Positions 1 to 6,597 of a stretch of 64,000 nt of DNA are shown here, piece after piece. Numbering within the stretch: the first letter of the stretch is position 1; each line of letters opens with the position of its first letter. The position numbers were made by a program, and so were the translations under genes. Source of the DNA: an uncultured Phycisphaerales bacterium (lineage in GTDB: Bacteria > Planctomycetota > Phycisphaerae > Tepidisphaerales > Tepidisphaeraceae); assembly GCA_963758525.1 (NCBI GenBank), contig CAVWVQ010000003.1, forward strand, positions 128,001 to 192,000, written 5' to 3'. Under the pieces are notes generated by a model. The model did no database searches, was not told the origin of the DNA, and was given only the letters and a program-made list of their open reading frames with translations.

Positions 1-312
1 AAGGTTGCGGTGATGGGATGCGTGGTGAATGGGCCGGGCGAATGCGAAGGGGCCGACATCGCGATTTTTGCCGGCGATCGTCGTGGAATTATCTACGTTC
101 AAGGGGAAAAGGTCGCGAATGTGCCGGAAGAATTGATTCTTTCGCGGCTCCTCGAGGAGTGCAAGAAATTCCAATCGCTGGTCGAACGTGGCGAAGCGCG
201 GCTCGGGGAGAAGAAAGTGGATATTCTCCCGCCTGATCCGATCGGCGATCTCGGCAGCGGCTGGGAGAAGATCGAGAAGGAAAAGGGGATGTCGCTGCCG
301 GTAGTGAAATGA
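1..312 (+). CDS. ispG: 4-hydroxy-3-methylbut-2-en-1-yl diphosphate synthase, C-terminal part (5'-truncated by window)
   Basis: Frame 1 reads KVAVMGCVVNGPGECEGADIA, the IspG Fe-S motif. Confidence 0.9.
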   Translation, partial: KVAVMGCVVNGPGECEGADIAIFAGDRRGIIYVQGEKVANVPEELILSRLLEECKKFQSLVERGEARLGEKKVDILPPDPIGDLGSGWEKIEKEKGMSLPVVK

Positions 313-318
313 GGGGGC

Positions 319-353
319 AGGCACAGAGGCACGAAGGCACGCAGGCACGAAGG
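319..353. repeat. 8-bp tandem repeat (AGGCACGA)x4
   Basis: aggcacag aggcacga aggcacgc aggcacga; same unit recurs near 30.2, 32.1, 43.3, 45.5 and 60.4 kb. Confidence 0.85.
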
Positions 354-395
354 GAAGGATCATGGGGAGAGCTGAGAGTTTCGCGCTGGAACGAT

Positions 396-1055
396 ATGAC
401 GTCAGTTGCAAAAGAGATACGAGAGTCTGTTCGGTCAGAGGATGACATCGGCCACGTTGTCCTTCAAAATATCGCATGGGAAACTTACGAACTATTGCTC
501 CGGGATCTGGAGGAGCAGCATTACCGTCTGACATATGACGGGGGAACTCTCGAAATCATGTCTCCATCACGTTTGCGCGAACGAGCCGGTCGACTGCTGG
601 GTCGTTTGATCTACGCGTACAGCGAAGCGCGCGACATTCCGATTGCCAGTTTCGGAAGCGCCACATGGCGTCGGCGCGACCTCTTCAAGGGACTGGAAGC
701 CGACGAGTGCTATTACGTAGCCAGCGAGGCGAGTATTCGCGGCCGGGATGAAATCGACATCAATGTCGACCCGCCGCCCGACCTTGCGATTGAAGTCGAT
801 ATCACGCCGAGCGCACTGGAAAAGCAACGCATCTATGCCGCCCTGGGAGTTGCGGAATTGTGGCGATGGGAAGACGAGACGCTGTGGGTCATGGCGCTCC
901 AAGCGGATCGGCAGTATGTTCGATCGCAGACGAGCCTGAATTTCCCCGAGCTGCCGCTGGCGGAGATCGCCCGATTCATGGCGATTCGCCACGACAGCAG
1001 CGAAACCGCCTGGATCAAGCTCTTTCGCGAGTGGCTCGTCACGACCGGAGCGTGA
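396..1055 (+). CDS. Uma2 (DUF820) family endonuclease
   Basis: RLTYDGGTLEIMSP, GLEADECYY, PPPDLAIEVDIT, YAALGVAELWRW; ATG 396 preferred because 309-395 is repeat-derived. Confidence 0.85.
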   Translation: MTSVAKEIRESVRSEDDIGHVVLQNIAWETYELLLRDLEEQHYRLTYDGGTLEIMSPSRLRERAGRLLGRLIYAYSEARDIPIASFGSATWRRRDLFKGLEADECYYVASEASIRGRDEIDINVDPPPDLAIEVDITPSALEKQRIYAALGVAELWRWEDETLWVMALQADRQYVRSQTSLNFPELPLAEIARFMAIRHDSSETAWIKLFREWLVTTGA

Positions 1056-1058
1056 AGC

Positions 1059-2474
1059 ATGTTTGAGCGAGTTACGGATCGGTGTCGGCACGTTATCGCC
1101 ATGGCGACCGCGGAGGCAGCCAGGCGCCAGCAGACCCAGGTCACGCCGGTGCATCTGCTGCACGGCATCCTGACGGAAGGACACAGCGGGTCGGCAAAAC
1201 TCCTCAACAGCTCAGGAGTGACGCTGGCCGAGTGGAATCAACGGATCGCCAAGGATTCTCCCGACCCCGCGCTCGGTTCTCTGGTTTTAAAACCGCCGCA
1301 GAGCGAGGCGGCGAAGAATGCGATTCTCTTTGCCATCGACTCGGCGCGCGAGCGGGGCCGGCACTGGATCGGGACGGAGGATCTGCTTCTGGGGCTGCTG
1401 CACGACCCGGCATCGGACGCGGTCCATGCGCTGGACACGCTTCACGTCGACATCAATGCCCTGCGCGATCAGACGCTGGAGTTGCTGGCGAGCAGGGGCG
1501 ATCCGAAATCGATCCGCGTCGGCATCATCGGCGTCAGCGGATACGGCGGCGGGGAGGCGCTGCGGCTCTGCGCCAATCATCCGCGCTTTCAAGTGGCTTA
1601 TGTCGCGGGCGAAGGAAGCGCGGGACAGAAACTCATCGAGCGGTTTCCCGGCATCGGGCCGCTCGGGCAACTCACGATCGAAAAGTGGAATCCGGCAAGT
1701 TTGCCGGCGCTGGACATCCTCTTCGCGTCATTGCCGACGGGCGAGTCAAAGGCCGCTCTGGCACAGGTGCCCGCGGAGACGAAAATCATCGACATCGGCG
1801 GGGATCATCGCTTCACCGAAGGCTGGACCTACGGGCTGGCGGATGTCTGGCCCGACAAAATCCGCGCGGCAACGCGCGTCGCCAATCCGGGCTGCTATTC
1901 CTCTGCCACGCTGGCGGCGTTAGCACCACTGATCGCGGACGGCCTGGTCAGCCCGACCGGCATCATCATCGACGCCAAGTCCGGCGTCAGCGGCGCGGGC
2001 CGGGGCGGCGGCGCCACGCTCGGATTTGCGGATGTGAATGAAGACGTTTCCGCGTACGGCCTGCTGAAGCATGCGCAGGTGCCGGAGATGATCCATGCGC
2101 TGACGACCCTTGCGAAAAGCGAAGCCTCGCTTCTCTTCACGCCGCATCTGATGCCGATGACGCGTGGCATTCTCGCGACGTGTTACGCGAAGGGAACTGC
2201 AACGACTGAGCAATGTTTCGCGTCGGCCCGGAAGTTCTACGAAGGCCGCCCTTTCGTCCGCGTGGTCGAGAAGCCGCCGCATACGAAGTGGGCGACAGGC
2301 TCGAATCTCGTGTATGTGTCGTACGCCGCCGATCCGAAGAGCGGGACGGTGATCGCGCTGGGTGCGATCGACAACCTCGGAAAAGGCGCCGCGGGGCAGG
2401 CAGTTCAGAACGCGAATTTAATGATGGATTTGCCGGAAATGACTGGGTTGGAAGGCACGCCGCTTTGGCCGTGA
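1059..2474 (+). CDS. argC: N-acetyl-gamma-glutamyl-phosphate reductase with N-terminal Clp repeat (Clp_N) domain
   Basis: aa 1-145 Clp_N-like (MFERVTDR, IGTEDLLLGLL); then IRVGIIGVSGYGG, ANPGCY, DAKSGVSGAGR, IDNLGKGAAGQAVQNAN. Confidence 0.9.
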   Translation: MFERVTDRCRHVIAMATAEAARRQQTQVTPVHLLHGILTEGHSGSAKLLNSSGVTLAEWNQRIAKDSPDPALGSLVLKPPQSEAAKNAILFAIDSARERGRHWIGTEDLLLGLLHDPASDAVHALDTLHVDINALRDQTLELLASRGDPKSIRVGIIGVSGYGGGEALRLCANHPRFQVAYVAGEGSAGQKLIERFPGIGPLGQLTIEKWNPASLPALDILFASLPTGESKAALAQVPAETKIIDIGGDHRFTEGWTYGLADVWPDKIRAATRVANPGCYSSATLAALAPLIADGLVSPTGIIIDAKSGVSGAGRGGGATLGFADVNEDVSAYGLLKHAQVPEMIHALTTLAKSEASLLFTPHLMPMTRGILATCYAKGTATTEQCFASARKFYEGRPFVRVVEKPPHTKWATGSNLVYVSYAADPKSGTVIALGAIDNLGKGAAGQAVQNANLMMDLPEMTGLEGTPLWP

Positions 2475-2495: not shown

Positions 2496-2789
2496 TTGGG
2501 AGCGTTATTTGTCAAAATCCGGCAGCTTGTCCTCGGCGGCCGGTATTTGATTGGCCAACACGCTGCCGAGCGTTTGGAGCAGCGCGGAATTCTTGAATGG
2601 CAAATCGTAGACGGGATCGAGAGCGGAACGTTGATTGCGGAGGAGCCCAACGACGTTCCCAATCCATCAGTGGAAGTTCATCAACTGCTGGCAGATGCGA
2701 CTCCCGTCAAGGCCGTGTGGTCGCTTCTGATTTCGATGGACGTCAGCAAACTGGTGACGGTACACTTCTTTGACGAGCAACAACGATGA
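2496..2789 (+). CDS. DUF4258-like protein (putative RelE-fold toxin)
   Basis: YLIGQHAAERLEQRGI ... KLVTVHFFD pattern; ATGA overlap with the next gene. Confidence 0.6.
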   Translation: MGALFVKIRQLVLGGRYLIGQHAAERLEQRGILEWQIVDGIESGTLIAEEPNDVPNPSVEVHQLLADATPVKAVWSLLISMDVSKLVTVHFFDEQQR

Positions 2790-3013
2790 ACACTCAAGGT
2801 AAGCGAGTTCGACGCACGCGGTTGGTTCGCACCGACCAATTCGTTGTCGCGGTGGAGGTCGAAGCAGTGATCCCGGACGGCGATCCGAGCGAAGCGTGCT
2901 TCGAGCCTGAAACGGTCGAGCTTCTGCGACAGGTGGAGGCTCGCGCAAAACAGGGCGACATTAACTGGCTGCGCCAGCATGGAAAGGTTTACACCGCTCT
3001 GGGGGCGGCTTGA
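2786..3013 (+). CDS. small hypothetical protein, putative antitoxin partner of the DUF4258 gene
   Basis: 75 aa, translationally coupled to the upstream gene. Confidence 0.55.
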   Translation: MNTQGKRVRRTRLVRTDQFVVAVEVEAVIPDGDPSEACFEPETVELLRQVEARAKQGDINWLRQHGKVYTALGAA

Positions 3014-3106: not shown

Positions 3107-3793
3107 CTACCCGTGCTTCGCAGATTCGCCCACCATCACCGGCGCAGCGTCGCCTTGAGATCGCCGTCCCTGCAACACGTGAATGATCGGCGGGATCAGC
3201 GAGATGAAGATGATCGCCAGCACGACCACCTGGAAGTGAGCGTTCACCCACGGAATTCGGCCAAAGCAATAACCGCAGAGGGTGACGCCGACGACCCAGA
3301 AAATTCCGCCGCTGATGCTGAAGAGAATGAAACGCGAGAATGGCATGCGCCCGATGCCGGCGACGAAGGGGGCGAACGTGCGAATGATCGGAACAAAACG
3401 GGCGAGAATGATCGTCTTGCGCCCGTGACGATTGTAGAAACTCTGGGCTTCGAGCAGATGCTTCTTGTTCAGGAGCCAGGAAGATTCGCGGCTGAAAACA
3501 TTGGGACCCAGGCGATAACCCATCAGATAGTTGACCAGATCCCCGCAGTTCGCGGCGACGCACAGAAGCGGGATGAGCACCGGCAGCGAGATGGCCGAAC
3601 TCTTGTAGGCGAGCGCGCCGAGCGCGAAGAGGAGCGAGTCGCCCGGCAGAAATGGTGTCACCACCAGCCCGGTTTCACAAAACACGATGGCAAAGAGGAG
3701 CAAATACAGCTTCGGCCCCATATCCGTCGCCGCCTGATCCAGGTGATGATCCAGATGCAGGAAGTAGTCCACCGCGGTATGCAGCAAATCCAT
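3107..3793 (-). CDS. dedA: DedA family membrane protein
   Basis: FCETGLVVTPFLPGDSLLF, ARFVPIIRTFAPFVAG. Confidence 0.92.
   Translation of the reverse strand: MDLLHTAVDYFLHLDHHLDQAATDMGPKLYLLLFAIVFCETGLVVTPFLPGDSLLFALGALAYKSSAISLPVLIPLLCVAANCGDLVNYLMGYRLGPNVFSRESSWLLNKKHLLEAQSFYNRHGRKTIILARFVPIIRTFAPFVAGIGRMPFSRFILFSISGGIFWVVGVTLCGYCFGRIPWVNAHFQVVVLAIIFISLIPPIIHVLQGRRSQGDAAPVMVGESAKHG

Positions 3794-4069: not shown

Positions 4070-6597
<2,528 letters not shown>

Follow-up and report, generated by a model that had tools for sequence, protein, structure and literature searches.

The locus at 1059-2474 of the window (the whole stretch of 64,000 nucleotides analysed here, from an uncultured Phycisphaerales bacterium of the Tepidisphaeraceae) raises the question of why an enzyme of arginine biosynthesis carries a ClpC-type domain at its N-terminus, and what this domain may bind. 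The first-pass annotation had described one uninterrupted open reading frame joining a double Clp repeat to a complete N-acetyl-gamma-glutamyl-phosphate reductase (ArgC), with one of two phospho-arginine (pArg) pockets apparently kept. The gene and its surroundings contain the following features.

1..312, + strand: 3' end of ispG, which usually precedes argC in Tepidisphaeraceae
309..1055, + strand: Uma2-family gene, ending 3 nt before the ATG of the fusion; start codon uncertain
1059..2474, + strand: Clp_N-ArgC fusion gene, 471 aa (ORF, Pfam, NCBIfam)
1059..1493, + strand: ClpC-derived N-terminal domain with two Clp repeats, residues 1-145
1074..1082, + strand: T6-D7-R8, helix-1 half of the kept pArg1 pocket (B. 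subtilis T7, R9)
1146..1151, + strand: P30-V31, one degenerate half of the pArg2 pocket (T30, E31 in ClpC)
1302..1310, + strand: S82-E83-A84, the other degenerate half of the pArg2 pocket (T82, R84 in ClpC)
1374..1379, + strand: T106-E107, second half of the kept pArg1 pocket (B. subtilis T105, E106)
1494..1511, + strand: six-residue linker without an in-frame ATG
1512..2471, + strand: complete ArgC, with the NPGCY motif and C279 at 1893-1895
3107..3793, - strand: dedA-family gene, conserved between argC and clpC
4070..6597, + strand: clpC, the likely domain donor, both pArg pockets intact, frameshift near 4963

The fusion gene and its junction

The frame at 1059-2474 (+) was found to be a single stop-free ORF of 471 aa in which profile searches recognise both domains, as the annotation had described. 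Pfam matched Clp_N twice (PF02861, E 1.8e-14) together with both semialdehyde dehydrogenase domains, and NCBIfam assigned residues 152-471 to ArgC over the full length of the profile (TIGR01850, positions 1-345, 297 bits against a cut-off of 233.6). The nucleotide-binding glycine loop G155-G165 and the motif N276-P277-G278-C279 are invariant in the homologue alignment, with P277-C279 invariant across 103 ArgC sequences; we take the cysteine of NPGC to be the catalytic residue. The ArgC half is complete, its motifs are intact, and reductase activity is predicted. The fused gene is the sole argC of the genome, and argB and argJ were found elsewhere in it. Compared with known ArgC proteins (TIGR01850; structures 1vkn and 2i3a), the fusion is alike in its full-length match, invariant NPGC and single copy, but carries an extra N-terminal module of 151 aa, for which no listed solved ArgC chain is long enough. 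Tepidisphaeraceae ArgCs, fused and unfused alike, are short proteins of about 320 aa, whose alignment to the 345-position model has a gap following DIGGDHR (window 1512-2471).

Residues 1-146 aligned with the ClpC N-domains of B. subtilis and M. tuberculosis (E about 1e-15), and the fused domain is 37% identical to the ClpC N-domain of its own genome. Structure prediction agreed with this assignment, since the AlphaFold N-domain superposes on solved ClpC N-domains with an rmsd of 1.4-3.4 A; the model is of good quality in the N-domain but modest as a whole (mean pLDDT 75, pTM 0.55), and it is uninformative on domain packing. The fusion thus resembles ClpC (5hbn; S. aureus and M. tuberculosis ClpC/ClpC1) in fold, double Clp repeat and pArg1 residues, but it has no AAA+ motor or M-domain, has lost pArg2 and is attached to a metabolic enzyme. 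By Pfam, the unfoldase features of ClpC (two AAA+ modules, M-domain, ClpP-docking loop) are absent from the protein. Pfam also revealed no HTH or other DNA-binding domain in it, and hence we did not file it as a ClpC2.

Fused genes can arise when an indel in an error-prone long-read assembly merges two neighbours, and this assembly carries one frameshift each in clpC (near 4963), ispG (C3 near 127,880), mcsB (C3 near 548,830) and clpB (C3 near 4,885,820); moreover, another genome, G137, holds both parts as separate genes. However, the junction, for which the annotation had proposed a check of coverage, is crossed by a short-read contig spanning 1478-1678 with 1 mismatch and 0 gaps (depth 2.8, possibly from the same sampling campaign, and reaching only 16 nt into the N-domain proper). 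In addition, P0003-P0006, from other assemblies, carry the same fusion, and P0003 matches the window's protein in length and junction at 82% identity. An assembly artefact was therefore rejected and can for practical purposes be dismissed. We likewise rejected an internal start for a free ArgC: the junction lacks an ATG, as previously noted, and the in-frame TTG (L142) has GGAG directly adjacent to it.

The genuine clpC that had been placed 1.6 kb downstream is present with both pockets, but the frameshift breaks it in this assembly; compared with the window's clpC, a related contig carries one additional base at 4963. The four frameshifts are most likely long-read indel errors, and broken genes in this genome should therefore be read with caution. 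Promoter and terminator scans gave results at chance level, and a search for RNA data sets containing the gene listed none. Directly after the fusion, at 2496-3013, lies a DUF4258 gene overlapping a 75-aa gene, which was not found in the relatives' loci searched; this pair presumably resembles a toxin-antitoxin pair.

Distribution and origin of the fused domain

A search for the architecture Clp_N plus semialdehyde dehydrogenase yielded at least 22 further protein clusters with both domains (13 among the best 120 matches, 8 by both Pfam labels, and the partial P0215). Two fragmentary proteins, P0130 and P0131, still contain a recognisable part of the domain, and P0137 possibly retains its last helix only. 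The fusion is rare. Among 141 Tepidisphaeraceae genomes, 138 of which gave any match, this genome is the only one with a match spanning both domains in the best 150 of 271 matches. A search of 1.84 billion representatives returned one partial fusion (P0215) among the best 150 matches, no fusion occurred among 80 metagenome loci (8 of 64 parts of the collection), and none of 80 genome matches extended into the N-domain (10 of 64 parts). G004 counts as one row in the 141-genome tally, in the mcsB tally below and in the ArgC trees.

An unrooted ArgC tree was built from 60 of the 224 rows, namely 25 fused ones, the unfused sequences closest to them and a random selection of others. On this tree the fused state requires 9 changes, at least 7 of them forced by well-supported branches. 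A single fused clade was rejected (AU p 1.3e-126; 25 fused against 35 unfused rows). Gains are indistinguishable from losses on a tree without a root, and there seem to be cases of each. In the N-domain tree, the branches radiate from ClpC like a star, and three old groups have support: A (5 rows, the window's protein among them), B (8) and C (2). By itself, this tree is compatible with a single origin. The N-domains of group A have 26 derived residues in common, and the closest ArgC relatives, P0007-P0012, are unfused and nested among group A ArgCs, indicating that the domain was probably lost again there.

Identity of the fused domains to ClpC runs from 69-79% in the young ones down to 29-53%, and since the ClpC N-domain itself is nearly constant, this range points to copies of different ages. 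Across about 120 Tepidisphaeraceae genomes, every full match to the ClpC N-domain (window 4076-4510) except one shows 95-100% identity, far above ArgC.

The order ispG - argC - dedA (opposite strand) - clpC is conserved in Tepidisphaeraceae. In 36 of 116 genomes with both genes, argC precedes clpC on the same strand by less than 10 kb, which amounts to 36 of the 46 genomes where both share a contig (this genome and G004 are not counted). Because argC is so often close upstream of clpC, local tandem duplication likely makes the junction: a duplication that spans the interval from the argC start to the N-domain linker of the downstream clpC would join the N-domain to argC, and if the spare copy were then lost, no argC other than the fused one would remain. 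Four genomes (G030, G146, G148, G149) have stand-alone copies of the N-domain immediately upstream of clpC, several young fusions retain the first part of the ClpC linker, P0128 carries two N-domains, and the linkers between Clp domain and ArgC range from about 6 to about 45 aa. In G137, a separate Clp N-domain gene sits between ispG and argC, 41 nt before the argC start (L281:3917-4354); this arrangement amounts to the fusion in split form. Gene order, and not the logic of a ligand, may be what links the domain to arginine metabolism.

If duplications next to clpC recurrently yield such fusions, the domain could be a tolerated passenger that need only fold and decays or is deleted in time. 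The ready mutational route, the rarity of the fusion and its repeated absence from close relatives agree with this idea. So does the rate of change in clade A, where N-domains of P0001-P0003 are 63% identical against 91% for ArgC, about four times faster divergence. Another genome, G010, encodes an ArgC with a 54-aa extension like the last helix of the Clp domain, following an out-of-frame MFER start (L198:3660-3860), possibly a deletion relic of a former fusion. On the other hand, N-domains of group A, at 45-63% identity, are still in frame where ArgC identity has fallen to 74-77%, although argC synonymous divergence already reaches 0.92 at 87.5% protein identity (window against L071). Moreover, in clade B1 (P0016-P0020) the domain is as conserved as ArgC (92% vs 91%). 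These comparisons suggest that the fused N-domain is under purifying selection, relaxed relative to ClpC, and together with the pocket residues described below they make a passenger unlikely.

Retention of one phospho-arginine pocket

Phospho-arginine is a degradation tag in Firmicutes and Actinobacteria. For the pocket residues we used B. subtilis numbering and take T105 to belong to pArg1 and T31, T81 and R83 to pArg2, as given in the first-pass annotation and in keeping with repeat symmetry. The other residues it had named are borne out by PMC12583610 (S. aureus ClpC, with B. subtilis structure 5hbn), which places T7, R9 and E106 in pArg1 and E32 in pArg2, and also states that pArg1 outweighs pArg2 for activation of ClpC by pArg. 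Alignment confirmed the contrast drawn between the pockets: the fused domain keeps T6, R8, T106 and E107 of site 1 and has lost site 2 (P30, V31, S82, A84), while the neighbouring ClpC has both pockets intact.

The same asymmetry was found in most of the diverged fused domains. Site 1 is intact in 18 of 21 fused domains covering both ends (six partial sequences left out), and of the 14 complete fused domains less than 55% identical to ClpC, 12 have an intact site 1 and none an intact site 2. Across groups A (5) and B (7 complete), only 10 of 145 positions retain the ClpC residue in every member, and the polar ones (4 of 67) are T6, R8, T106 and E107. As a control, we examined 171 other Clp double domains below 55% identity, taken from one biased search with rows that are not independent, and found site 1 intact in 66 and site 2 in 58; below 40% identity, site 1 was intact in only 7 of 58. 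The most conserved polar residues of the control are H108, H32, E19, E31 and E95. Since the control domains show little bias toward site 1, the pocket asymmetry of the fusions is not generic, and a general structural bias was rejected as its cause. The surface pocket residues of the fused domains stay while residues conserved elsewhere, such as H108, have changed, which argues against a passenger. In favour of one, clade C (P0091, P0127) has lost both pockets. The split Clp_N gene of G137 keeps site 1 (TRSE) and has lost site 2 (DMTE), so that the pocket-1 signal comes from two independent lineages plus this split form.

Some Clp N-domain copies in Tepidisphaeraceae have the opposite state, with site 2 kept and site 1 lost. 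A divergent stand-alone Clp N-domain gene present in many of these genomes (here C1:76286-76741, L007) keeps the TE of site 2 and lacks site 1.

A retained pocket 1 need not mean that pArg is the ligand. According to PMC12583610, T7 and R9 of pocket 1 touch E426/E435 of the neighbouring M-domain in resting ClpC, and according to PMC13345244, E237 of mycobacterial ClpC2 sits in the pArg site; by analogy, a pocket that accepts glutamate side chains may serve the fusion in the same way. Likewise, the T7/D104/E110 surface of ClpB supports aggregate binding according to PMC3646808 and PMC10149685, and a similar surface on the fused domain might do so too. Pocket 1 could then dock on an acidic surface (ClpC M-domain, adaptor, its own ArgC or aggregates) independently of pArg, and this would tether ArgC to ClpC for turnover or loosen the ClpC resting state. 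K86, another anchor of the resting state, is unchanged in clade A, as such docking would predict, but it is not kept in clade B. Docking alone also sits poorly with the joint retention of all four pArg residues including E107, and the aspartate position of the ClpB triad is R or Q in P0001 and P0003. We therefore regard docking without pArg as unlikely.

The ClpB N-domain itself offers a partial parallel, with one pArg site partly conserved, the other lost and the T7/E110 surface supporting aggregate binding, as these sources describe it. The fused domain differs in keeping R8 and in deriving from ClpC; ClpB of this genome has K at the R8 position (TKTE).

Possible roles of the fused domain and their meaning

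The search for mcsB that the annotation had proposed was positive. In this genome mcsA, identified by sequence and position, precedes mcsB at C3:547531-549100, far from clpC, and in this assembly a frameshift interrupts mcsB downstream of its kinase domain. A match to mcsB was obtained in all 46 Tepidisphaeraceae genomes tested. Neither CtsR nor ArgR gave a match in this 91%-complete genome; with an mcsA-mcsB pair and no CtsR match, the pArg system is apparently under another regulator. We found no published description of pArg in Planctomycetes, in a literature search that covered subscription journals thinly.

The closest precedents are mycobacterial. PMC9604228 gives 1.4 uM for pArg binding by a mycobacterial ClpC1 N-domain. 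PMC13345244 describes one conserved pocket in ClpC2, at the N-terminus of helix 1, which binds pArg at 5-12 uM and rejects pSer and pThr; pArg-casein acts on ClpC2 more strongly than free pArg, pArg disrupts ClpC2 oligomers, and sequestering of pArg substrates is proposed. From its helix-1 position and the 97-residue spacing of its two threonines, we infer that this pocket is site 1. The review PMC10864484 describes ClpC2 and ClpC3 as competitors of ClpC1 for substrates. ClpC2/ClpC3 represent a ClpC N-domain copy without ATPase, and the fusion shares the one-pocket state of ClpC2. The two differ in their partners: in ClpC2 the Clp domain is C-terminal to a DNA-binding repressor module and the protein is actinobacterial, whereas the partner here is an enzyme. 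In addition, the function of ClpC2 is shown by experiment, and that of the fusion is a prediction.

Taken together, the retention of pocket 1 alone, the presence of mcsAB and the ClpC2 precedent suggest a reader of pArg-tagged proteins. We tentatively favour, at slightly less than an even chance, a ClpC2/ClpC3-like reader tethered to ArgC whose chemistry is largely unchanged. Its N-domain would bind pArg marks set by McsB on proteins, as mycobacterial ClpC2 does. ArgC is a tetramer, and such an oligomer would display several pArg1 pockets. The fusion may be an optional device that reads or buffers pArg-tagged proteins, either competing with ClpC or co-localising with its clients, and ArgC chemistry is probably little changed. 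What speaks against the reader is that the domain is dispensable: one of the 141 genomes is fused among the matches listed, and the closest ArgCs are unfused.

The domain could also be an allosteric sensor, in which pArg, either on proteins or released in free form when tagged proteins are degraded, switches the activity or oligomer state of ArgC and links arginine synthesis to damage stress. The effect of pArg on ClpC2 oligomers through the same kind of pocket makes such a switch conceivable, and the recurrence of argC as fusion partner, the G137 split form beside argC and the missing ArgR match agree with it. However, gene order can account for the recurrence, the linkers vary widely in length, and the nearest ArgC relatives manage without the domain. 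When seven fused groups were compared with 199 unfused ArgCs, no convincing fusion-specific ArgC residue emerged; the single weak candidate, V362, occurs in 3 of 7 fused groups and is rare in the unfused ones. Allosteric control of ArgC is thus possible but not probable. The earlier suggestion of pArg sensing or coupling to Clp proteolysis consequently stands in part: pArg1 is selectively kept and mcsAB is present, but control of ArgC finds no backing in the variable linkers or the ArgC residues.

A further suggestion, that the domain senses free arginine or N-acetylglutamyl-phosphate for feedback or substrate capture, follows from pathway logic only, in that ArgC works on an acyl-phosphate and the genome also has argB and argJ. 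PMC12583610 states that unphosphorylated arginine does not activate ClpC, and the rejection of pSer and pThr by the ClpC2 pocket also speaks against this suggestion. The acidic E107 would also disfavour an anionic acyl-phosphate and fit a guanidinium ligand. This suggestion is accordingly disfavoured and appears very improbable.

ArgC is one of several partners of this domain. In Tepidisphaeraceae, the Clp N-domain is also fused to cytochrome P450, HAAS plus GNAT, HAAS plus cupin, a probable membrane protein (L194, L291, L285, L286, L287, L289, L290 and L283 for these four kinds) and HTH_17; both pockets are kept in the GNAT fusions and in 2 of 3 cupin fusions. Fusions to FolB, NUDIX, HIT, alpha/beta hydrolase, TIR and LuxR occur in the wider collection. 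The HTH_17 fusions, from three genomes (L187, L189, L296), resemble the ClpC2 layout of a DNA-binding module plus a Clp domain, and could be pArg-responsive regulators outside Actinobacteria. Many tandem Clp N-domains were also seen (P0182-P0307, P0335), with up to 11 matched stretches in 1762 aa.

The boldest version of these ideas is that ArgC is under the direct control of the pArg tag, through a recycled ClpC pocket gained several times independently that tunes arginine synthesis to the McsB-tagged load, as one of a set of pArg-reader fusions (P450, GNAT, cupin, HTH, FolB, NUDIX, HIT). We consider it improbable, though worth stating; if true, the Clp N-domain would be a general modular pArg reader, as SH2 is for phosphotyrosine.

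Databases name the fused proteins plain ArgC or Clp N-domain protein. The annotation's author did not recognise the architecture, and we likewise found no published description of a Clp_N-ArgC fusion, with subscription journals thinly covered. Both parts are known separately, and their fusion appears new. The non-protease pArg reader that we found described in the literature is ClpC2. The rarity and dispensability of the fusion limit its importance. Nevertheless, it points to a pArg system throughout Tepidisphaeraceae, with mcsB in every genome tested and a near-invariant ClpC N-domain, and it suggests that other proteins have repeatedly acquired the reader domain. It also provides a natural series, from young fusions with two pockets, such as P0028, through older ones with pocket 1 only, such as P0001 and P0014, to one lineage with none, alongside the split form and unfused enzymes of 87% identity. 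If the domain controls ArgC, protein quality control would be directly linked to arginine synthesis in these bacteria; if it is only a tethered reader, the fusion would still show how a pArg-binding module spreads.
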